This document shows, one piece after another, positions 764 to 10,322 of a stretch of DNA of 10,322 nucleotides. Source of the DNA: a virus. Its lineage: Duplodnaviria > Heunggongvirae > Uroviricota > Caudoviricetes. Below the pieces are notes generated by a model. That model saw nothing but the letters and a program-made list of their open reading frames with translations, was not told the origin of the DNA and did no database searches. The DNA lies in the IMG/VR virus record IMGVR_UViG_2526164646_000015, one strand, 5' to 3'. Position 1 is the stretch's first letter; each line of letters starts with the position of its first letter. The position numbers were made by a program, and so were the translations under genes.

Positions 764-818
764 GGTAATGCTGCCAACTTACTGATTTAGTGTATGATGG
801 TGATTTTAAGGTGCTTGC

Positions 819-1070
819 GTGGCTTCCATTTCCATCAGATGTCCTTCCTGCTCCGCTACTGAAGGCGTGGTGCGTAACGGCAAAAGCACTGCCGGACATC
901 AGCGCAATCTCTGCTCTCATTGCCGTAAAACATGGCAACTACAGTTCACTTACACCGCCTCTCAGCCCGGTACGCACCAGAAAATCATTGATATGGCCAT
1001 GAATGGCGTCGGATGTCGCGCCAGTGCACGCATTATGGGCTTGGCCTCAACACGGTTTTACGTCACTTAA
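819..1070 (+). pseudogene. insA: IS1 insA, C-terminus altered by an apparent 1-nt deletion
   Basis: Translation [73 protein letters not shown] follows canonical InsA, then diverges ([10 protein letters not shown], canonical ..[18 protein letters not shown]). ATGGGCTTGGCC here versus remembered ATGGGCGTTGGCC implies loss of one G. GTG start at 819. Confidence 0.6.
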
Positions 1071-1515
1071 AAAACTCAGGCCGCAGTCGGTAACCTCGCG
1101 CATACAACCGGGCAGTGATGTGATTGTCTGCGCTGAAATGGACGAACATTGGGGCTACGTCGGTGCTAAATCACGTCAGCGCTGGCTGTTTTACGCGTAT
1201 GACAGGATACGGAGGACGGTTGTGGCGCACGTCTTCGGTGAACGCACTCTGGCCACACTGGAGCGTCTTCTGAGCCTGCTGTCGGCCTTTGAGGTCGTGG
1301 TATGGATGACGGATGGCTGGCCGCTGTATGAATCACGCCTGAAGGGAAAGCTGCACGTTATCAGCAAGCGTTACACTCAGCGCATTGAGCGACATAATCT
1401 GAATCTGAGACAACATCTGGCAAGGCTGGTACGGAAGTCACTGTCGTTCTCAAAATCGGTGGAGCTGCATGACAAGGTCATCGGGCATTATCTGAACATA
1501 AAACACTATCAGTAA
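1003..1515 (+). CDS. insB: IS1 InsB (transposase catalytic portion; normally expressed as InsAB' fusion)
   Basis: 170-aa ORF ..[132 protein letters not shown] is near-identical to remembered IS1 InsB. Confidence 0.85.
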
Positions 1516-1530
1516 GTTGGAGTCATTACC

Positions 1531-2454
1531 CAGGAGTCGCTGAAAAATACGCGTTAATCGAACAATGGCGACAACAATTTCCCATTGAAGCGATGTGTCA
1601 GGTATTTGGTGTATCCAGGAGCGGTTATTACAACTGGGTACAGCATGAACCCTCAGACAGAAAACAAAGTGATGAGCGGCTAAAACTGGAGATTAAGGTG
1701 GCACATATCCGCACTCGCGAAACATATGGAACCCGGCGGCTCCAGACGGAGCTGGCAGAGAATGGCATCATCGTTGGTCGTGACCGACTGGCACGTCTTC
1801 GTAAGGAGCTGAGGCTACGCTGTAAGCAGAAACGCAAGTTCAGAGCAACTACGAACCCGAACCACAATCTGCCAGTTGCGCCAAATCTGCTGAACCAGAC
1901 GTTCGCTCCTACAGCACCAAATCAGGTCTGGGTGGCGGACCTGACGTATGTTGCCACACAGGAGGGATGGTTGTACCTCGCTGGCATCAAAGATGTTTAT
2001 ACGTGCGAAATTGTCGGCTACGCCATGGGAGAGCGCATGACAAAAGAGCTGACAGGTAAAGCCCTGTTTATGGCGCTCAGGAGCCAGCGCCCACCTGCCG
2101 GGCTAATCCACCACTCTGATCGAGGTTCACAGTACTGCGCATACGATTACCGGGTCATACAGGAGCAGTCTGGTCTGAAAACATCAATGTCGCGTAAAGG
2201 TAACTGTTACGACAACGCTCCGATGGAAAGCTTCTGGGGAACGCTGAAAAATGAGAGCCTGAGCCACTATCGTTTTAATAACCGGGATGAAGCCATCTCA
2301 GTAATACGGGAATACATTGAGATTTTCTACAATCGTCAGCGTCGTCACTCTCGTCTGGGGAATATCTCCCCGGCAGCCTTCAGGGAAAAATATCATCAGA
2401 TGGCTGCTTAAAAAAAGAACAAATGGTAGTGTCCGCTATTGCCAGTACACCTCA
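1531..2454 (+). mobile_element. IS600-like (IS3 family) element, 5'-truncated copy lacking about 340 bp including nearly all of orfA
   Basis: 1531-2454 is the reverse complement of the inner 924 bp of the second copy (9123-10046) wherever spot-checked (both junction regions and the orfB start); orfB translations are identical. Homology starts immediately after the IS1 right end and stops at ..GTACACCTCA (2454), a typical IS3-family CA terminus. Confidence 0.85.
1593..2411 (+). CDS. IS600-like orfB transposase (DDE integrase-core domain), IS3 family
   Basis: 272-aa ORF with IS3-family OrfB hallmarks (..WVADLTYV..GWLYLAGIKDVYTCEIVGYAMG..HHSDRGSQYCAYDY..GNCYDNAPMESFWGTLKNE..) and identical to the ORF at 9166..9984 (-). 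orfA, needed for the normal OrfAB frameshift fusion, is missing upstream. Confidence 0.85.
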   Translation: MCQVFGVSRSGYYNWVQHEPSDRKQSDERLKLEIKVAHIRTRETYGTRRLQTELAENGIIVGRDRLARLRKELRLRCKQKRKFRATTNPNHNLPVAPNLLNQTFAPTAPNQVWVADLTYVATQEGWLYLAGIKDVYTCEIVGYAMGERMTKELTGKALFMALRSQRPPAGLIHHSDRGSQYCAYDYRVIQEQSGLKTSMSRKGNCYDNAPMESFWGTLKNESLSHYRFNNRDEAISVIREYIEIFYNRQRRHSRLGNISPAAFREKYHQMAA

Positions 2455-2700
2455 CTGACATGCTAAAGCAAAAAATAGATGAATAAGTTGAGTTGTGCAT
2501 ATGTAGCCTGACCGTCACAAAGTATATGGTGTCTGTACCAGTAAGATGATGGCCGGACTCTTTAAAAAAGAGCTGACCTGCACAATACAGGATGGACTTA
2601 GCAATGGCTGCTCCTGGCACAAAGCGGACAGTGATCACCGTTCTTACGACTACTTTCTGACTTCCTTCGTGACTTGCCCTAAGCATGTTGTAGTGCGATA

Positions 2701-2726
2701 CTTGTAATGACATTTGTAATTACAAG
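2701..2726. promoter_or_regulatory. relO-type operator (TTGTAAT / ATTACAA repeats) in the relB promoter region
   Basis: CTTGTAATGACATTTGTAATTACAAG sits 11 bp upstream of the relB start; it contains direct and inverted TTGTAAT hexads, consistent with the known RelB-RelE operator architecture. Confidence 0.6.
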
Positions 2727-2737
2727 AGGTGTAAGAC

Positions 2738-2977
2738 ATGGGTAGCATTAACCTGCGTATTGACGATGAACTTAAAGCGCGTTCTTACGCCGCGCTTGAA
2801 AAAATGGGTGTAACTCCTTCTGAAGCGCTTCGTCTCATGCTCGAGTATATCGCTGACAATGAACGCTTGCCGTTCAAACAGACACTCCTGAGTGATGAAG
2901 ATGCTGAACTTGTGGAGATAGTGAAAGAACGGCTTCGTAATCCTAAGCCAGTACGTGTGACGCTGGATGAACTCTGA
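2738..2977 (+). CDS. relB: RelB antitoxin
   Basis: 79-aa product MGSINLRIDDELKARSYA..LEK.GVTPSEALRL.LEYIADNERLPFKQTLLSDEDAELVEIVKERLRNPKPVRVTLDEL is near-identical to E. coli K-12 RelB as I recall it; stop overlaps the relE start (TGATG). Confidence 0.95.
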   Translation: MGSINLRIDDELKARSYAALEKMGVTPSEALRLMLEYIADNERLPFKQTLLSDEDAELVEIVKERLRNPKPVRVTLDEL

Positions 2978-3264
2978 TGGCGTATTTTCTGGATTTTGAC
3001 GAGCGGGCACTAAAGGAATGGCGAAAGCTGGGCTCGACGGTACGTGAACAGTTGAAAAAGAAGCTGGTTGAAGTACTTGAGTCACCCCGGATTGAAGCAA
3101 ACAAGCTCCGTGGTATGCCTGATTGTTACAAGATTAAGCTCCGGTCTTCAGGCTATCGCCTTGTATACCAGGTTATAGACGAGAAAGTTGTCGTTTTCGT
3201 GATTTCTGTTGGGAAAAGAGAACGCTCGGAAGTATATAGCGAGGCGGTCAAACGCATTCTCTGA
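2977..3264 (+). CDS. relE: RelE mRNA-interferase toxin
   Basis: 95-aa product MAYFLDFDERALKEWRKLGSTVREQLKKKLVEVLESPRIEANKLRGMPDCYKIKLRSSGYRLVYQVIDEKVVVFVISVGKRERSEVYSEAVKRIL matches K-12 RelE; translationally coupled to relB. Confidence 0.95.
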   Translation: MAYFLDFDERALKEWRKLGSTVREQLKKKLVEVLESPRIEANKLRGMPDCYKIKLRSSGYRLVYQVIDEKVVVFVISVGKRERSEVYSEAVKRIL

Positions 3265-3335
3265 ACCAAAGCATGACATCTCTGTTTCGCACCGAAGGTG
3301 ACACTTCTGCTTTGCGTTGACAGGAGAAGCAGGCT

Positions 3336-3491
3336 ATGAAGCAGCAAAAGGCGATGTTAATCGCCCTGATCGTCATCTGTTTAACCGTCATAGTGACGGC
3401 ACTGGTAACGAGGAAAGACCTCTGCGAGGTACGAATCCGAACCGGCCAGACGGAGGTCGCTGTCTTCACAGCTTACGAACCTGAGGAGTAA
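3336..3491 (+). CDS. hokD: HokD (RelF) Hok-family small membrane toxin
   Basis: Not in the ORF track (below length cutoff). ATG at 3336, TAA at 3489-3491; translation MKQQKAMLIALIVICLTVIVTALVTRKDLCEVRIRTGQTEVAVFTAYEPEE (51 aa) matches HokD/RelF of K-12 Qin from memory. Confidence 0.9.
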   Translation: MKQQKAMLIALIVICLTVIVTALVTRKDLCEVRIRTGQTEVAVFTAYEPEE

Positions 3492-3558
3492 GAGACCCGG
3501 CGAGTGAGAAATCCCTCGCCACCTCTGATGTGGCAGGCATCCTCAACGCACCCGCACT

Positions 3559-3590
3559 AAACCCGCTTCGGCGGGTTTTTGTTTTTATTT
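3559..3590 (+). terminator. Rho-independent terminator downstream of relB-relE-hokD
   Basis: AAACCCGC-TTCG-GCGGGTTTTTGTTTTTATTTT: 5-6 bp GC stem, tetraloop, long T tract on the + strand. Confidence 0.7.
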
Positions 3591-3708
3591 TCAACGCATT
3601 TGAAGTTCTGGATGGTGCCGGAATAGAATCAAAAATACTTAAGTAGCGCGCAGGGATAAAAGGGATGGACCCCGAACAGGGGAGTGCTACTTATCTGGAA
3701 GGATTCTG

Positions 3709-3960
3709 ATGATGAACATCGAAGAACTGCGTAAAATTTTTTGTGAAGATGGCCTCTATGCTGTGTGCGTTGAAAATGGAAATATTGTTAGTCATTACCG
3801 CATTGTGTGTTTGCAAAAAAATGGGGCTGCGTTAATTAATTTTGTGGATGCCCGAGTGACGGACGGATTTATCTTGCGCGACGGTGAGTTTGTCACTTCA
3901 TTACAGGCATTGAAAGAGATCGGAATAAAAGCTGGCTTTTCTGCTTTTTCAGAAGAATAA
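3709..3960 (+). CDS. rem: Rem (small Qin-prophage protein of unknown function)
   Basis: 83-aa ORF MMNIEELRKIFCEDGLYAVCVENG.. has the length and position (just after hokD) of K-12 rem and matches my recollection of it; function unknown. Confidence 0.75.
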   Translation: MMNIEELRKIFCEDGLYAVCVENGNIVSHYRIVCLQKNGAALINFVDARVTDGFILRDGEFVTSLQALKEIGIKAGFSAFSEE

Positions 3961-4026
3961 ACTCATCTACAATCTTGCGCGGGGCTGAACTCCCGCTGAG
4001 TAACACCGTGCCACCGGAGAAAACCG

Positions 4027-4227
4027 ATGGCACGCAACGCAAAATATTACAATCATGATAATTCGACCGTTCTTGCCCACACGCACGAGCGGTATTCTCA
4101 CGCATTTAAGTCAGACTGGTACCAGCATCCCTCATGCACTGAAGAACAGGCCGAATGGCTTATTCAGTGTTACCGCAGGCGCGGATGCGAGGTTAAAAAA
4201 GCCCTTAGCCTCGACTACCGTCACTAG
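4027..4227 (+). CDS. Hypothetical small protein (66 aa), Cys/His-containing, unknown function
   Basis: ORF with a well-placed Shine-Dalgarno (CCGGAGAAAACCG-ATG) between rem and ydfU; no family recognised. Confidence 0.45.
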   Translation: MARNAKYYNHDNSTVLAHTHERYSHAFKSDWYQHPSCTEEQAEWLIQCYRRRGCEVKKALSLDYRH

Positions 4228-4306
4228 ATAATCTCCGTCAGGCTCCCTTACTCCGAACAGCCACCGCGTCCGTCCCGCACATTCCAGCAACGGATCTGGA
4301 GGTAAC

Positions 4307-5356
4307 GTGCGGGTATTACTTCGACCTGTTCTGGTTCCGGAACTCGGGCTGGTGGTCCTTAAGCCCGGTCGTGAATCCATGCCGGTATTCCACAATACCC
4401 GGGTACTGGTGGAGCCGGAACCGAAAAGCATGCGTAATCTGCCGTCCGGGGTCGTTCCTGCCGTTCGCCAGCCGCTAGTGGAAGACAAAACATTGCTGCC
4501 GTTTTTCAGTAACGCACGGGTGATTCGTGCTGCTGGTGGTGCTGGCGCATTGTCTGACTGGCTGTTGCGCCATATTAAATCCTGCCAGTGGCCACACGGC
4601 GATTATCATCACAGCGAAACCGTCATTCACCGTTATGGTACCGGCGCAATGGTATTGTGCTGGCACTGCGACAACCAGCTGCGTGACCAGACATCCGAAT
4701 CACTCGAGCAACTTGCTCATCAAAACCTGTCAGCATGGATGATTGACGTCATCGGTCACGCAATAAGCGGTACGCAGGAGCGTGAATTATCTCTAGCTGA
4801 ATTATCCTGGTGGGCGGTCCGCAATCAGGTGGCGGACGCGCTACCGGAAGCGGTATTACGTCGTTCGCTGGGGTTGCGTGCGGAAAAAATCCGCTCAATG
4901 TACCGTGAAAGCGACATCGTACCGGGAGAGCAGACCGCCACCAGCATACTGAAACAGCGCACAAAAAATCTTGCGCCGCTGCCTCACGCCCACCAGCAAC
5001 AGAACCCACAACAGGAAAAGACGGTGGTCAGCATTGCCGTTGATCCTGAGTCTCCGGAATCTTTCATGAAACGACCTAAACGTCGCCGCTGGGTTAACGA
5101 GAAATACAAACGCTGGGTGAAGACACAGCCGTGTGCGTGTTGTGGTAAGCCAGCCGACGATCCCCATCACCTGATTGGTCATGGTCAGGGCGGAATGGGG
5201 ACCAAATCTCACGATATTTTCACGCTACCGCTGTGTCGGGAGCATCACAACGAGCTTCATGCGGATCCTCTGGCGTTCGAAGAAAAGCATGGTTCTCAGG
5301 TTGATTTAATTTTTCGTTTTCTTGATCACGCCTTTGCAACTGGCGTGCTTGGGTAA
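4307..5356 (+). CDS. ydfU: YdfU-like DUF968 prophage protein with C-terminal Cys/His (HNH-like) motif
   Basis: 349-aa ORF, same length as K-12 YdfU; GTG start at 4307 preceded by GGAGGTAAC; C-terminus ..CACCGKPADDPHHLIGHGQGG..LPLCREHHNELH is the Cys/His cluster typical of DUF968 proteins in lambdoid nin regions. Confidence 0.85.
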   Translation: MRVLLRPVLVPELGLVVLKPGRESMPVFHNTRVLVEPEPKSMRNLPSGVVPAVRQPLVEDKTLLPFFSNARVIRAAGGAGALSDWLLRHIKSCQWPHGDYHHSETVIHRYGTGAMVLCWHCDNQLRDQTSESLEQLAHQNLSAWMIDVIGHAISGTQERELSLAELSWWAVRNQVADALPEAVLRRSLGLRAEKIRSMYRESDIVPGEQTATSILKQRTKNLAPLPHAHQQQNPQQEKTVVSIAVDPESPESFMKRPKRRRWVNEKYKRWVKTQPCACCGKPADDPHHLIGHGQGGMGTKSHDIFTLPLCREHHNELHADPLAFEEKHGSQVDLIFRFLDHAFATGVLG

Positions 5357-5368
5357 AAGAGGTGACTG

Positions 5369-5725
5369 ATGCTCATAGATTTGGTTTTACCTTACCCGCC
5401 GACGGTGAACACTTACTGGCGACGCCGTGGCAGCACATATTTTATCTCGGAGGAGGGAAAGCGTTATCGCCGGGCTGTGGCGCTTATTGTTCGCCAGCAG
5501 CGGCTGAAATTAAGCCTGTCCGGAAGGCTGGCGATAAAGGTGATTGCAGAGCCACCGGATAAGCGTCGTCGCGACCTGGACAATATCCTGAAAGCACCGC
5601 TGGATGCGCTGACGCATGCGGGAGTGTTAATGGACGATGAGCAGTTTGATGAAATCAATATCGTTCGTGGTCAGCCAGTATCTGGTGGACGTCTGGGGGT
5701 GAAGATTTACCCCATAATGCATTAA
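5369..5725 (+). CDS. rusA: RusA-family Holliday-junction resolvase
   Basis: 118-aa ORF with AGAGG RBS; motifs PDKRRRDLDN, DALTHAGVLMDDEQ and GGRL align with E. coli RusA (PDRRRRDLDN, DALTKAGFWLDDAQ, GGRL), including the catalytic acidic residues. Confidence 0.85.
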   Translation: MLIDLVLPYPPTVNTYWRRRGSTYFISEEGKRYRRAVALIVRQQRLKLSLSGRLAIKVIAEPPDKRRRDLDNILKAPLDALTHAGVLMDDEQFDEINIVRGQPVSGGRLGVKIYPIMH

Positions 5726-5739
5726 GAGCAGGTCAAAAA

Positions 5740-6561
5740 ATGAAACTGGAAGATTTACCGAAATACTACTCCCCAAAATCCCCTGGCCTGACCGATGCAT
5801 CGGCCTCAACGTCAAAAGATGCGCTGAGTATCACTGATGTGATGGCCGCGCAGGGCATGACACAGAATCGGGCTGAGATGGGTTTTTCTGCGTTCCTGGG
5901 GAAAATGGGCATCAGTATGAATGACAGGGCGCGGGCAACAGAATTACTGGCAGATTATGCACTCAGTCGGTGCGATCGTGTGGCGGCGTTGAGAAAACTT
6001 CCGGCAGAAATAAAACCGGTAGTGATGCGCATTATGGCTTCGTACGCTTTTGAGGATTATGCCCGCAGCGCAGCGAGTAAAAAGCAGTGCCCTTGTTGCT
6101 ATGGGGAAAAATTTATTGAAAGCATAGTTTTTACAAACAAGATCCAGTATCCGGATGGTAAGCCGCCGGTATGGGCAAAGTGTACGAAAGGTGTGTATCC
6201 GTCTTACTGGGAAGAATGGAAAAAAGTCAGGGAGGTGGTAAAAGTTGCCTGTCCGGAGTGTGGCGGAAAGGGTGAGGTTTCCACCGCCTGTAAGGATTGC
6301 CGTGGGCGTGGTGTCGCCATTCATCGTGAAGAGTCGGTAAAACGTGGTATGCCTGTTATCAGAGACTGCCAGCGTTGTGGTGGTCGTGGCTATGAAAGAC
6401 TACCATCAACGGAGGCATTTAATGCTATATGCGAGGTGACAAACCAGATAACACGCGCGTCATGGGAAAAAACAGTTAAGAAATTTTATGATGCGCTGGT
6501 GACCCGGTTTGATATTGAAGAAGCATGGGCTGAGCGGCAGTTAAAAAAGGTAACTAGGTAA
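5740..6561 (+). CDS. Late-gene antiterminator Q-like protein (QuuQ/phage-82 class) with four DnaJ-type CxxCxG(xG) zinc-finger repeats
   Basis: Position (after ydfU/rusA, immediately before a PR'-like promoter, tR'-like terminator and tRNA genes) is that of Q in lambdoid phages; N-terminus MKLEDLPKYYSPKSP resembles what I recall of K-12 QuuQ; repeats CPCCYGEK, CPECGGKG, CKDCRGRG, CQRCGGRG are read directly from the translation. Family assignment is from memory, not a search. Confidence 0.65.
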   Translation: MKLEDLPKYYSPKSPGLTDASASTSKDALSITDVMAAQGMTQNRAEMGFSAFLGKMGISMNDRARATELLADYALSRCDRVAALRKLPAEIKPVVMRIMASYAFEDYARSAASKKQCPCCYGEKFIESIVFTNKIQYPDGKPPVWAKCTKGVYPSYWEEWKKVREVVKVACPECGGKGEVSTACKDCRGRGVAIHREESVKRGMPVIRDCQRCGGRGYERLPSTEAFNAICEVTNQITRASWEKTVKKFYDALVTRFDIEEAWAERQLKKVTR

Positions 6562-6566
6562 CAAGG

Positions 6567-6595
6567 TTGATTTTTCCGGAATCTGTGGTAAATTC
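6567..6595 (+). promoter_or_regulatory. PR'-like late promoter (sigma70 -35 TTGATT, extended -10 TGgTAAATT)
   Basis: TTGATT (6567-6572), 16-nt spacer, TGgTAAATT (6586-6594), 5 bp after the Q stop codon; matches the position of PR' in lambdoid phages. Confidence 0.55.
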
Positions 6596-6642
6596 GTCAT
6601 GATGATGGGCGTTTTATGCCTGGCGTTAGAAGAGTTTCTACA

Positions 6643-6668
6643 ACCCGCCGCTGAGCGGGTTTTTTTAT
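6643..6668 (+). terminator. tR'-like intrinsic terminator (target of Q antitermination)
   Basis: ACCCGC-CGCTGA-GCGGGTTTTTTTATTG: 6-bp GC stem plus T7 tract about 50-70 nt downstream of the PR'-like promoter, giving a short 6S-like leader transcript. Confidence 0.7.
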
Positions 6669-6705
6669 TGCGAAATTAATTACGGACCGTTATTATTCTG
6701 CTCCC

Positions 6706-6781
6706 GGCCCTTTAGCTCAGTGGTGAGAGCGAGCGACTCATAATCGCCAGGTCGCTGGTTCAAATCCAGCAAGGGCCACCA
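6706..6781 (+). tRNA. tRNA-Ile2 (anticodon CAU, lysidine-type, ileX/ileZ-like)
   Basis: 76-nt cloverleaf: acceptor GGCCCTT/AAGGGCC, D arm GCTC..GAGC, anticodon loop CU-CAT-AA, T arm GCTGG-TTCAAAT-CCAGC, terminal ACCA. Close to remembered E. coli ileX, hence Ile2 rather than Met. Confidence 0.85.
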
Positions 6782-6882
6782 TCACAAACCGCCATTAGCT
6801 TATCAGGAAGAGCAGACGACACGATAACAGGGTTGTTGGTGCGGGGGGCGGGTCCCCGATGGCGGTCCATTATCGGTATTCA

Positions 6883-6959
6883 GCGTTGTTAGCTCAGCCG
6901 GACAGAGCAATTGCCTTCTAAGCAATCGGTCACTGGTTCGAATCCAGTACAGCGCGCCA
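6883..6959 (+). tRNA. tRNA-Arg (anticodon UCU, reads AGA; argU/argO-like)
   Basis: 77-nt cloverleaf: acceptor GCGTTGT/ACAGCGC (one G-U), D arm GCTC..GAGC, anticodon stem ATTGC/GCAAT with loop CT-TCT-AA, T arm ACTGG-TTCGAAT-CCAGT, discriminator G, CCA encoded. Confidence 0.85.
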
Positions 6960-7069
6960 TATTCATTCTTCCAGATTCCTTCCGGCAGAGCCTTATACTG
7001 AAATATACCTGGCTCAGGATATTGTTGAAAATATTATATATTTGTCAAAAATAAAAGTTCTGTTAAGTA

Positions 7070-7423
7070 TTGATTGAGTATTTGTTATACGGTCTAATGG
7101 TTTTTTCAGCATTAAGTATTTATCATTCATATGGTGTGGGTAGAGTGAATATTGATGAGGCGTCGGGGTGTTTCATCCTTAGGCAGCGTATTGATATAGT
7201 CAATGCAGCACGAGCAAAGGCCTTCAGCCGTTTGACAGTTTTGTTCTGTACTCCTGATCGTCTTTCGGGAAGAGACGTTATTATTCTGAATAGTGATGCT
7301 ATACAGAGGGTTTGCGATGAGTTCATGGTTGCTAATTCAGAATTATTTGCTCTTGTTCAGGAGTACAACAGAATAGCCAGGACCTGTGGTATGGATGAAC
7401 TTCGGATTACTCATCTGGGGTAG
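7070..7423 (+). CDS. Hypothetical protein (117 aa), hydrophobic N-terminus, unknown function; cargo (moron) ORF
   Basis: ORF from the track; TTG start at 7070 or ATG at 7097, neither with a convincing Shine-Dalgarno. Contains 3 AGA, 3 AGG and 3 AUA codons (6 of 11 Arg, 3 of 11 Ile). No family recognised. Confidence 0.35.
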   Translation: MIEYLLYGLMVFSALSIYHSYGVGRVNIDEASGCFILRQRIDIVNAARAKAFSRLTVLFCTPDRLSGRDVIILNSDAIQRVCDEFMVANSELFALVQEYNRIARTCGMDELRITHLG

Positions 7424-7503
7424 ATACATATCTGGATTATCACCTGTTACGGTAAAAAGTGATTGCTTACTGTTTTTGTTAATGGCATTGCAGCAGCCGG
7501 ATA

Positions 7504-7590
7504 ATGTCAGTGCCGGCTGACGGTGTGCTGGTGGCGGGTGTGGTGGTTGTTGCTTTCCCGTTGCTGAAAAAGAAAACGCCAGACTGTTAG
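7504..7590 (+). CDS. Candidate small hydrophobic peptide (28 aa: MSVPADGVLVAGVVVVAFPLLKKKTPDC), speculative
   Basis: Manually read ORF; ATG lies in the loop of a CAGCCGG..CCGGCTG hairpin; predicted single TM helix followed by KKK. Weak RBS; no homology recognised. Could be a chance ORF. Confidence 0.2.
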   Translation: MSVPADGVLVAGVVVVAFPLLKKKTPDC

Positions 7591-7815
7591 CCGGGTATCA
7601 GTTAGCGGGAGAAATTTTTAAATACTTCACAATTCAGGCGGTTGACTGTTGTCTGGTTTGCGGGGAGTTTGTTAAAAGAAACTGGCATGGTGAATCCCCC
7701 TGTGCGGAGGGGCAATCAGCGAGTAGGTATATGGGATAATCGCGGATTCAGGTGCTGGTACTGAATTCACCGGGAGGCACCCGGCACCATGGAATGGCAC
7801 ATAGCGCCACTCTCC

Positions 7816-7850
7816 AGCCCCTCTCCGGAGGGGCTGTTTATATTGATTTT
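7816..7850 (+). terminator. Intrinsic terminator (perfect 8-bp stem AGCCCCTC-TCCG-GAGGGGCT plus T-rich tail)
   Basis: Perfect palindrome 7816-7835 followed by GTTTATATTGATTTT; lies between the convergent + strand cargo ORFs and the stop codon (7871) of the - strand ORF. Confidence 0.6.
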
Positions 7851-7870
7851 GTCAGATGTGAGTAAACTCC

Positions 7871-8206
7871 TTATGGACTTTGTTGTTTTAGTCCATAAGG
7901 ACATATTTGCAGAGTGCAACGGTTATTAAAGCATTCATTCAATACGTTATCTGTATTTGTAGGGCATTCCTGGCTGTTTTTGATTAAATTCCAGAATGTT
8001 TTATTGAATGGTACTACGTTGTAAATGGTTACAGGTAGCACTTTGTTATTGAGCATGATGCCTGTGTGAGTCAGTGTAAATATACTTTCAGGAGGTAAGA
8101 AAGCATCCGATTGATACCAGATTATTAATTTTATTTTACTCCATATGACTGAAAAAGATATTCCGCATGATGGCTGGATAACTGTATCAATCACAATCCA
8201 CTTCAT
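7871..8206 (-). CDS. Hypothetical protein (111 aa), Trp/Cys-rich, unknown function; cargo (moron) ORF
   Basis: ATG at 8206 preceded on the - strand by AAGGA at 7-nt spacing; a TATACT -10-like element lies further upstream in very AT-rich DNA. No family recognised. Confidence 0.4.
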
Positions 8207-8450
8207 TTAGTTTCCTTGTTTATGCCTTGCTGGTGATGTTCTGAAAAGTATAAATGATATTTTTGAATTAAACCATAGAGCAGAATTATTTTTCTGATGT
8301 TGTTTATTGTTTATTTAAATGCAGGGTGGTTTATATCTCGTCTTGTAGTTTATCCATGCATATCTGCTTGATAATCAGGTTTTTATTTAAGGTATGGTTT
8401 TGTGTTTTTTCTGTATTACATGTCAGGTATTTTAAAGAATTATTTTTCAG

Positions 8451-8654
8451 ATGTTGGAAAGAACCATGGCATTTAAACACTATGATGTTGTCAGGGCGGC
8501 GCCGCCGTCAGATCTTGCGGAAAAGCTGACACATAAACTGAAAGAGGGCTGGCAGCCGTTTGGTAGTCCGGTGGCCATAACCCCTTATACCCTGATGCAG
8601 GCGATTGCAGCAGAAGGTGATGTGGTGGTCAGTGGTGCAACTGAGCCGGAGTGA
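8451..8654 (+). CDS. Small conserved-looking prophage protein (62-67 aa), unknown function; possibly DUF1737-like
   Basis: ORF MLERTMAFKHYDVVRAAPPSDLAEKLTHKLKEGWQPFGSPV..; the more likely start is ATG 8466 (MAFKHYDVV). The YDVV..LAEK..LKEGWQP.G pattern resembles small phage proteins I recall near lysis cassettes, but I cannot confirm the family without a search. Confidence 0.5.
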   Translation: MLERTMAFKHYDVVRAAPPSDLAEKLTHKLKEGWQPFGSPVAITPYTLMQAIAAEGDVVVSGATEPE

Positions 8655-8897
8655 TACTACGTCATCGTACTGGCCCGGCATTCCAGGCCATAAAAGACAG
8701 TCTGGCAGTGGGACTAAATGCACTGACGCTGACGGATATTACCAAAAATGCAACGTATGGCGTTGAGATAGAAAGTCTGGTGCTGGAGATAAATGCACCG
8801 GCATCATCATAAAAAGTGAGCCAGTCAAATGGAAGGTATCGTTAAACTCACCGGTAGTGTCAGTGGGTCGTCTGAGACGCTTGCATGAGTTATCAGA

Positions 8898-8928
8898 GCC
8901 ATCAGTAGTTAACTGGTGGCTTTTTTAT
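8898..8928 (+). terminator. Intrinsic terminator immediately upstream of the holin start
   Basis: GCCATCAG-TAGTTAA-CTGGTGGC (8-bp stem, one G-U) followed by TTTTTTATTGTTG; ends about 35 nt before the holin ATG. Confidence 0.6.
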
Positions 8929-8961
8929 TGTTGTCAGCTTCCGGATAACGGGAGACGGGGT

Positions 8962-9122
8962 ATGGACCAGATGGAAAAAATCACAACAGGTGTGTCATAC
9001 ACCACGTCAGCGGTGGGAACGGGCTACTGGTTCCTGCAGTTGCTGGACAGGGTTTCCCCGTCTCAGTGGGCGGCAATAGGCGTGCTGGGGAGTCTGCTGT
9101 TTGGGCTGCTGACATATCTGAC
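8962..9122 (+). pseudogene. Phage-21-type pinholin (S21-like class II holin) gene, 3' end removed by IS600 insertion
   Basis: ATG at 8962 with GGAG RBS; [54 protein letters not shown] aligns with remembered phage 21 S ([60 protein letters not shown]..). The frame enters IS600 at 9123 and the last 6 codons (EVYWQ*) are IS-encoded, so the charged C-terminal tail is lost. The tracked ORF start at 8857 is an upstream in-frame extension, not the real start. Confidence 0.75.
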
Positions 9123-9165
9123 TGAGGTGTACTGGCAATAGCGGACACTACCATTTGTTCTTTTT

Positions 9166-9984
9166 TTAAGCAGCCATCTGATGATATTTTTCCCTGAAGG
9201 CTGCCGGGGAGATATTCCCCAGACGAGAGTGACGACGCTGACGATTGTAGAAAATCTCAATGTATTCCCGTATTACTGAGATGGCTTCATCCCGGTTATT
9301 AAAACGATAGTGGCTCAGGCTCTCATTTTTCAGCGTTCCCCAGAAGCTTTCCATCGGAGCGTTGTCGTAACAGTTACCTTTACGCGACATTGATGTTTTC
9401 AGACCAGACTGCTCCTGTATGACCCGGTAATCGTATGCGCAGTACTGTGAACCTCGATCAGAGTGGTGGATTAGCCCGGCAGGTGGGCGCTGGCTCCTGA
9501 GCGCCATAAACAGGGCTTTACCTGTCAGCTCTTTTGTCATGCGCTCTCCCATGGCGTAGCCGACAATTTCGCACGTATAAACATCTTTGATGCCAGCGAG
9601 GTACAACCATCCCTCCTGTGTGGCAACATACGTCAGGTCCGCCACCCAGACCTGATTTGGTGCTGTAGGAGCGAACGTCTGGTTCAGCAGATTTGGCGCA
9701 ACTGGCAGATTGTGGTTCGGGTTCGTAGTCGCTCTGAACTTGCGTTTCTGCTTACAGCGTAGCCTCAGCTCCTTACGAAGACGTGCCAGTCGGTCACGAC
9801 CAACGATGATGCCATTCTCTGCCAGCTCCGTCTGGAGCCGCCGGGTTCCATATGTTTCGCGAGTGCGGATATGTGCCACCTTAATCTCCAGTTTTAGCCG
9901 CTCATCACTTTGTTTTCTGTCTGAGGGTTCATGCTGTACCCAGTTGTAATAACCGCTCCTGGATACACCAAATACCTGACACAT
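9166..9984 (-). CDS. IS600-like orfB transposase (DDE), IS3 family
   Basis: 272-aa ORF identical in translation to 1593..2411 (+). Confidence 0.9.
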   Translation of the reverse strand: MCQVFGVSRSGYYNWVQHEPSDRKQSDERLKLEIKVAHIRTRETYGTRRLQTELAENGIIVGRDRLARLRKELRLRCKQKRKFRATTNPNHNLPVAPNLLNQTFAPTAPNQVWVADLTYVATQEGWLYLAGIKDVYTCEIVGYAMGERMTKELTGKALFMALRSQRPPAGLIHHSDRGSQYCAYDYRVIQEQSGLKTSMSRKGNCYDNAPMESFWGTLKNESLSHYRFNNRDEAISVIREYIEIFYNRQRRHSRLGNISPAAFREKYHQMAA

Positions 9985-10019
9985 CGCTTCAATGGGAAAT
10001 TGTTGTCGCCATTGTTCGA

Positions 10020-10322
10020 TTAACGCGTATTTTTCAGCGACTCCTGTGCAAAATACGCTGTTGCTTTTTTTAATATATCTCGCTCAAGGCGAGCTTCATT
10101 TAACGCCTTACGCAGTTGCAGAATTTCAGATTCCAGTTCAGCCACCGTGCGGGAACCAGGAGTACCGAGCCCTTTTCTGGCGGCGGTAACCCATTGTCCT
10201 AAAGTGCCTTCAGGAAGAGATAATCGGGAAGCGCCTTCACTGATCGAAAGTTGATTTTCAAGAACCGTTCTGACAGCTTCGGCTTTGAACTCTTTAGAGT
10301 AACGTTGGGTTTTTCTGCTCAT
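10020..10322 (-). CDS. IS600-like orfA (HTH DNA-binding component of the OrfAB transposase)
   Basis: 100-aa ORF MSRKTQRYSKEFKAEAVRTVLENQLSISEGASRLSLPEGTLGQWV..ILKKATAYFAQESL has the IS3-family OrfA layout (HTH followed by leucine-zipper-like segment ending ..KKATAYFA); overlaps the orfB frame as expected for programmed -1 frameshifting. Confidence 0.9.
   Translation of the reverse strand: MSRKTQRYSKEFKAEAVRTVLENQLSISEGASRLSLPEGTLGQWVTAARKGLGTPGSRTVAELESEILQLRKALNEARLERDILKKATAYFAQESLKNTR

Follow-up and report, generated by a model that had tools for sequence, protein, structure and literature searches.

A Qin-type remnant bracketed by IS600

The window, by which we mean the whole 10,322-nucleotide stretch of DNA analysed, holds a run of lambdoid prophage genes between two copies of the insertion sequence IS600, with a phage-21-type holin gene (S) at its right edge (Table 1). 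The intact open reading frames (ORFs) of the remnant include relB, relE, hokD, rem, ydfU, rusA and the antiterminator gene Q; structural, replication, immunity and integration genes are all absent. The gene order ydfV-relB-relE-hokD-rem-ydfU beside ydfJ-ydfI-ydfZ is collinear with the Qin prophage of Escherichia coli K-12, to which the DNA from ydfV′ to ydfU is 93% identical and the flank from ydfJ′ to dcp 98.5% identical. The part from Q to S is a different, Stx-phage-like mosaic module, and the Q region (5363–6924) is 97.5% identical to phage vB_EcoS-640R1 (640R1), which also shares the DUF1737 gene, the 53-amino-acid ORF and the IraM-family gene found upstream of S in the window. Gene order and identity mark the window as what is left of a Qin-type lambdoid prophage in a chromosome of the Shigella flexneri type. 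As had been predicted from the sequence beforehand, it keeps toxin–antitoxin genes (relBE and hokD), Q, two tRNAs and cargo genes. The accompanying description of a lysis-defective prophage is correct in that no lysis genes remain, but it understates the decay, because the phage DNA has shrunk to 6.7 kb.

Table 1. Positions of the features in the window and the evidence for each
Feature	Position	Strand	Evidence
IS1 truncating the left IS600 (insA/insB)	764–1530	+	ORFs; Pfam DDE_Tnp_IS1 on related loci; BLAST against the second IS1 in L004, L006 and other loci
Second IS600 copy, partial (924 bp, orfB only), inverted relative to the right copy; right-end terminus at 2454 adjoins ydfV	1531–2454	+	Window self-matches, ORFs, junction sequence
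ydfV, first 87 codons kept, 3′ end replaced by IS600	2455–2713	−	93% DNA match to K-12 Qin from L014 20158; protein comparison
relB, relE and hokD toxin–antitoxin genes	2738–3491	+	Pfam RelB, ParE_toxin, HOK_GEF; collinear with K-12 Qin
Antiterminator Q, intact, 273 amino acids	5740–6561	+	Pfam PF03589, E = 6e-55; same length as 640R1 Q
Late-promoter-like hexamers TTGATT-17-TAAATT (6567–6595) and first terminator hairpin/T-run (6642–6667), downstream of Q	6567–6667	+	Sequence reading; terminator scan
tRNA-Met (CAT) and tRNA-Arg (TCT)	6706–6959	+	ARAGORN, Rfam
Intrinsic-terminator-like hairpin, 12-bp stem, 5-nt loop, with U-run	8895–8929	+	Pattern scan, RNA fold, phage comparison
Small predicted hairpin CUUCCG-GAUAA-CGGGAG over the Shine–Dalgarno sequence of the first holin start	8938–8954	+	RNA prediction
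S21-type class II holin, 5′ portion (codons 1–54), predicted dual start Met1/Met4	8962–9122	+	Pfam PF04971; 54-residue identity to 640R1 S
Holin–IS600 fusion ORF, 59 amino acids: 54 native residues, then EVYWQ and stop from the IS600 end	8962–9141	+	ORF, alignment; exact product in public databases
IS600, right copy: terminus 9123, orfB 9166–9984, orfA 10020–10322, 64 bp more past the window end	9123–10322	−	Annotated IS600 matches, Pfam, far end in L005

On the left side, IS1 has cut off the left part of the second IS600 copy, and beyond the IS elements lie ydeQ′ and ydeP, which in K-12 are found about 60 kb away. IS600 and IS1 had been expected to stand in place of ydfV, flxA and the dic genes. 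Both flxA and the dic genes are indeed absent from the remnant, whereas the first 87 codons of ydfV are still present.

Within the cargo, between the tRNAs and the IraM-like gene, positions 7656–7845 (+) match the Rfam STnc100 small RNA (124 bits, gathering score 47), which ends in a strong terminator at 7815–7836. The neighbouring 111-amino-acid ORF at 7871–8206 (−) is of the PmrD/IraM family (‘anti-adapter protein IraM’ in 640R1, Pfam PmrD in public gene calls) and constitutes regulatory cargo within the late region.

Downstream of Q, the hexamers and the first hairpin with its T-run may represent pR′ and tR′, by analogy with lambdoid phage organization. The Q/pR′ switch looks structurally intact, and no early genes are left to drive Q. 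The layout agrees with the established scheme, by which transcripts from pR′ terminate unless Q modifies the polymerase (PMC7547250). In an intact phage, Q-modified RNA polymerase from pR′ would also read through the terminator-like hairpin before S. A strong terminator had been predicted at 8898–8928, about 35 nt upstream of the holin start, and our fold agrees, with the stem beginning 3 nt further left. The stem occupies 8895–8923 and the U-run continues to about 8929 (UUUUUUAUUGUUGU / TTTATTGTTG after the stem), 33–38 nt before the ATG at 8962; the predicted folding energy is −17 kcal/mol, compared with −6.1 ± 1.8 for shuffled sequences (z = −5.9; 0 of 200 shuffles as good). Its stable, GC-containing hairpin and immediate U-run make it a putative Rho-independent terminator. 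The hairpin is identical in 640R1 and near-identical in the Stx2-converting phage 86 (Stx2-86), and in the 933W group homology to the window starts at 8893, two bases before it. Moreover, a hairpin with a U-run 30–60 nt before the S start is found in 933W, Stx2a_1447, VT2-Sakai, Stx1_EH1995 and cdtI (L015–L020), with different stems (AGGGACCATCGG/CCGGTGGTCTTT in VT2-Sakai; GGCCAC/GTGGCC in cdtI) that differ in partly compensatory ways. Because its position is the same across phages with different stems, a terminator upstream of S appears to be a conserved part of the late-operon design. K-12 essQ has no comparable hairpin and U-run within 120 nt upstream, and the terminator is thus a trait of the Stx-phage-like S module and not of every S21-type holin. 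It is plausible that the hairpin insulates S from cargo transcription unless Q-modified polymerase reads through, a reading supported by the conserved position of such hairpins upstream of S in many phages.

The smaller hairpin, over the Shine–Dalgarno sequence, is predicted in the window, 640R1, Stx2-86, 933W, Stx2a_1447, VT2-Sakai and Stx1_120412; the stem is invariant in all seven, and covariation evidence is hence absent. It probably balances the antiholin and holin starts, a role that we take to be the one assigned to such hairpins in the dual-start holin literature.

Truncation of the holin gene

The ORF at the right edge encodes a class II holin of the phage-21 type with a length of 59 amino acids. 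Positions 8962–9138 match the Pfam family PF04971, ‘Bacteriophage P21 holin S’ (E = 1.2e-23; 83 bits, cut-off 26), but cover the profile only at positions 1–54 of 64. Over residues 1–54 the protein is identical to the intact, 71-amino-acid S of 640R1 (L001) and differs at one residue from S of Stx2-86 (L002), which is also 71 amino acids long when intact. After T54 the window protein continues as EVYWQ and stops (...TYLT-EVYWQ*), whereas the intact S proteins of 640R1 and Stx2-86 read NLYFKIREDRRKAARGE at this point. In a megablast search against phage records, 343 records matched, all annotated as holin or lysis protein S, the best at 99.7% over 8820–9122. A full-length PF04971 member has about 68–71 residues, two transmembrane domains (TMDs) and a basic cytoplasmic tail; the 59-amino-acid product, of which 54 residues are native, falls short of this and is, judged by alignment, a truncated member (a pseudogene or fusion) rather than an intact one. 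The Pfam match and the intact-gene alignments thereby bear out the original prediction that an IS600 terminus breaks the S21-like frame at 9122/9123 and removes the C-terminal tail; the possibility that the frame is full length in related phages is answered by the 71 residues of the intact relatives.

DNA identity to intact S genes ends after ...CTGAC(T), and from 9123 (TGAGGTGTACTGGCAATAGCGGACAC...) the window has the same terminus as the end of the other IS600 copy at 2454. The breakpoint is accurate to one base on either side, because the T at 9123 could belong either to the native codon ACT or to the IS end. The right element matches RefSeq features annotated as ‘IS3-like element IS600 family transposase’ at about 99%, and its proteins match Pfam HTH_Tnp_1, HTH_21 and rve. 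In a near-identical chromosome (L005), the complete element measures 1,264 bp (10162–11425) with the ends TGAGGTGTAC... and TGAGGTAGCC...; its length, its orfA/orfB organization with helix–turn–helix and rve DDE transposase domains and its TG...CA terminal repeats are those of IS600, an identification that rests on the RefSeq matches.

Up to the breakpoint, window S resembles the S21 pinholin of phage 21, EssQ of Qin and EssD of DLP12 in its PF04971 match, its TMD1–loop–TMD2 arrangement and the same conserved 14-residue core. The sequence begins MDQM..., and Met1 and Met4 form a dual-start motif, as in S of 640R1 and 933W and in EssQ; by this motif, an antiholin starting at Met1 and a holin starting at Met4 are predicted. 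Unlike those holins, window S ends at residue 54 of 71, and the final four residues of TMD2, the anchoring Lys and the charged tail are missing; five IS-encoded residues take their place, and no SAR endolysin or Rz gene lies next to it. Between the terminator hairpin and the end of S codon 54, the cassettes of 933W, Stx2-86 and 640R1 (terminator-S-DUF1327-R-Rz) are 94–99.7% identical in DNA to the window. In these phages the cassette is complete and morphogenesis genes are present; in the window, nothing of phage origin follows codon 54.

An active pinholin makes small heptameric pores that depolarize the membrane, and its TMD1 leaves the bilayer. Residue-by-residue truncation of S21-68 found the C terminus to be largely dispensable down to K56, and a basic residue at position 56 to be needed as the anchor of TMD2 at the cytoplasmic face; Arg can substitute there, and His, Glu or hydrophobic residues leave reduced or very limited function (bioRxiv 10.1101/2021.04.20.440580). 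In S21-68 numbering (by manual count), T51 is the last native residue of the window protein, and the IS-encoded residues after it place E at 52 and Q at 56. TMD1, the loop and 19 of some 23 TMD2 residues survive in the product, but the lysine that anchors TMD2 and the charged tail on the cytoplasmic side are missing. Most likely the product forms pores weakly or not at all.

We consider it unlikely that the truncated holin is still active, or is kept for a host role as a membrane-depolarizing toxin (in abortive infection or stress) made when Q or read-through passes the terminator. Such a role could draw on an intact ORF, Shine–Dalgarno hairpin, dual start, TMD1 and most of TMD2, which the IS-derived EVYW extends to nearly native length; on the finding that S21-68 can form pores without most of its charged tail (bioRxiv 10.1101/2021.04.20.440580); on intact Q, pR′-like promoter and terminators; and on the fixation of the allele on 839 contigs. 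However, Q occupies the position of the required basic residue 56 and a Glu has been brought in at 52, clonal descent within S. flexneri explains the wide occurrence, and the sequences, being nearly identical, give no sign of selection.

The IS600–ydfJ junction and the missing lysis genes

The exact 59-amino-acid fusion was found in 1,465 public index blocks, 100 of which have contigs longer than 1 Mb, and ten 20-kb loci around it were compared. The flank past position 10322 was read from near-identical chromosomes with 9 to 18 mismatches to the window; three of them (L005, L009 and L013) are collinear with the whole 10,322-base window at 99.85–99.9% (L005, 99.9%). The original prediction had pointed past the window end to the rest of IS600 and to any S 3′ end, endolysin gene R and Rz. 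The near-identical genomes show the remainder of IS600 and then ydfJ, at a junction that in L005 lies at 11425/11426 (CTACCTCA|CCCATC). There, CCCATCTTGCTGG... opens 6 kb of sequence with 98.5% identity to K-12, which carries, in order, ydfJ (from L014 6021, about codon 89), ydfI, ydfZ, rspR, ydfG and dcp.

No tblastn match to the 640R1 proteins YdfR (DUF1327), lysozyme R or Rz was found in the window, L003, L005 or L006 (8 to 20 kb each), and the S 3′ end (AACCTGTATTTCAAAATC...) is absent from the window, with up to 3 mismatches allowed, and from all 11 Shigella-type loci; among all the loci compared, it occurs only in intact phages. In the intact relatives, S-DUF1327-lysozyme-Rz follow directly after the same S sequence, with a Phage_lysozyme match (E = 1.5e-23) that has a hydrophobic, Gly/Ala-rich N terminus and an Rz match (E = 9e-50). 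A pinholin/SAR-endolysin system has an adjacent SAR endolysin and an Rz/Rz1 spanin, and neither is present in the window or in 8–20 kb of the related loci, which agrees with the earlier claim that no endolysin follows the holin, here in near-identical genomes past the window’s own end. Because the endolysin and the spanin are absent, no lysis is possible, and the remnant cannot lyse its host; a Qin-type remnant of this kind can give the host no lysis function. IS600 had further been thought to separate S from lysis genes downstream. That no lysis genes lie next to S stands, but they have been deleted rather than separated, and IS600 joins ydfJ.

A target duplication of 3 bp, proposed as a check on the insertion, is not there: the bases next to the right IS600 are GAC on the S side and CCC on the ydfJ side (flank from L005). 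Its absence is as expected after deletion or recombination and is no argument against the identity of the element as IS600. The far IS600 end is joined to ydfJ, none of the S 3′ end, ydfR, R and Rz is present, and the duplication is missing; the event was therefore an IS600-associated deletion out of the prophage into host ydfJ and not a simple insertion. One IS600 occupies the place of everything from S codon 55 to ydfJ codon 88: lost are the final 17 S codons, the genes for DUF1327, endolysin and Rz/Rz1, all other phage genes up to the prophage end, and the start of ydfJ. The K-12 interval from essQ codon 55 to ydfJ codon 88 spans about 8.4 kb and contains ydfR, rrrQ, rzpQ/rzoQ, cspI, gnsB, ydfO, nohA, stfQ, tfaQ, pinQ and ydfK. 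Two routes could have led to this state: a deletion adjacent to IS600, or recombination between two IS600 copies in direct orientation. Taken together, we hold it to be very probable that the window is a Qin-type remnant in which IS600 cuts S after codon 54, with a deletion reaching into ydfJ and a product that is probably weak or dead.

A simple insertion of IS600 into S, with the S 3′ end, endolysin and Rz intact just past the element and the cassette split rather than lost, would suit a window that ends inside IS600, and IS600 is placed in this way in the late regions of other prophages (L021 and L022). Nevertheless, ydfJ′ directly follows IS600 in five window-like chromosomes, the 3-bp duplication is absent, and neither R, Rz and ydfR homologues nor the S 3′ end occur in the 8 to 20 kb around the junction. 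On these sequences, a simple insertion is already refuted for the sequenced relatives, and we regard it as extremely unlikely for the window. The chance that the junction is an assembly artefact, from collapse or mis-joining at an IS600 that is highly repeated in these genomes around a remnant found in two orientations, is close to negligible, given that the same holin–IS600 junction is present in more than 10 independent complete chromosomes and on 839 contigs and that identical junction bases are kept in both orientations.

Complete RefSeq E. coli genomes were also searched for the holin–IS600 junction, and no record covered at least 80% of the query. The nearest RefSeq E. coli matches were unrelated IS600 insertions in EHEC prophages, upstream of S or downstream of Rz, with no S5′-IS600-S3′ intermediate among them. 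Two such independent insertions leave the holin intact: one lies between a nanS-like esterase gene and S (NIID080884, L021 2544–3700), and the other just after an Rz-like lysis gene in O26-type strains (L022 3484–4640).

As to the origin of the two inward-facing IS600 ends, we considered and rejected a single intramolecular transposition of the replicative type, because the inverted 3-bp duplication that it predicts is absent (CCC at ydfJ, CTG at ydfV). To our knowledge, IS3-family elements do not normally transpose by an intramolecular replicative route. We favour separate insertions followed by homologous recombination. The 5-mer CTGAC adjoins both inward-facing right ends (2455–2459 and 9118–9122), the native sites being ...AACA|CTGACATGC in ydfV and ...CTGACATATCTGAC|TAACC in S; the shared 5-mer could reflect IS600 target preference or chance, and it does not fit a 3-bp target duplication.

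Orientation and occurrence of the remnant

The 6,668-bp segment between the inverted IS600 copies (2455–9122) is found either way round between the same chromosomal flanks, ydeP-ydeQ′-IS1 on one side and ydfJ′-ydfI on the other. Five loci have the orientation of the window (L005, L008, L009, L011 and L013) and six are flipped (L003, L004, L006, L007, L010 and L012). Both the inverted-IS600 bracket and the two orientations are new here. Like essQ in K-12 Qin, window S follows Q and is directed towards ydfJ; since orientation and integration side are the same, the window has the ancestral Qin orientation. L011 is in the window orientation, yet it carries five single-nucleotide polymorphisms common to all flipped loci. 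Across the 11 loci the pattern, with few informative sites, fits one inversion within a sub-lineage, as opposed to frequent switching.

It seems highly improbable that the remnant serves as an invertible cassette, whose flips would rewire which host genes receive phage-type antiterminated transcription. Such a cassette would rely on the intact Q, the pR′-like promoter and terminators competent for read-through. Transcription that resists the terminators and proceeds past S′ would head for ydfJ′-ydfI in the window orientation; where the segment is flipped, as in about half of the chromosomes compared, it would be directed at ydeQ′-ydeP-safA-ydeO, which are acid-resistance regulators. The host genes beyond S′ are co-directional with S′ in either orientation. 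In practice, a remnant that lies either way round can mislead synteny comparisons and short-read assemblies.

Integration of Qin at the 5′ end of ydfJ, the variability of prophage remnants between K-12 and S. flexneri, and the IS-mediated crippling of a Shigella lambdoid prophage have been described (PMC6379469). The defective Stx prophage of Shigella dysenteriae 1 is flanked by IS600 (McDonough and Butterton 1999, as cited in PMC6379469); as far as that citing account goes, it resembles the present locus in that IS600 and IS1 bracket a short lambdoid remnant and that deletions and rearrangements have made it non-inducible. The window differs in species and locus (the Qin site at ydfJ), in having no stx, in its inverted IS600 copies and in a remnant that is flipped in some strains. 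Our literature search found no paper on this holin–IS600 junction; the papers that came up treat Qin and IS-mediated prophage decay in general. The locus is an ordinary case of the already catalogued IS-driven decay of cryptic prophages in S. flexneri; it documents one more step of that decay in Shigella and carries little weight beyond annotation.

For annotation, the exact 59-amino-acid product is present on the 839 public contigs and in many complete chromosomes, under the names ‘Lysis protein S [Shigella flexneri]’ (UniRef Q7UCH5_SHIFL) and ‘MULTISPECIES: class II holin family protein [Shigella]’. These names give no sign of the truncation by IS600, and a fusion that is labelled as an ordinary lysis protein S or class II holin should be marked as truncated. 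The 4.44-Mb chromosome of ECMA0423 (CP178302.1, L003), labelled Escherichia coli, carries the Shigella-type junction and IS1/IS600 arrangement and, by this locus, looks like a Shigella or EIEC-type genome. In another flipped chromosome (CP182555.1, L004 3534–6400), the left 2.9 kb from ydfV′ to ydfU is strongly divergent, with many single-base indels and several genes uncalled, a pattern suggestive of recombination with a further Qin-like sequence or of heavy pseudogenization.
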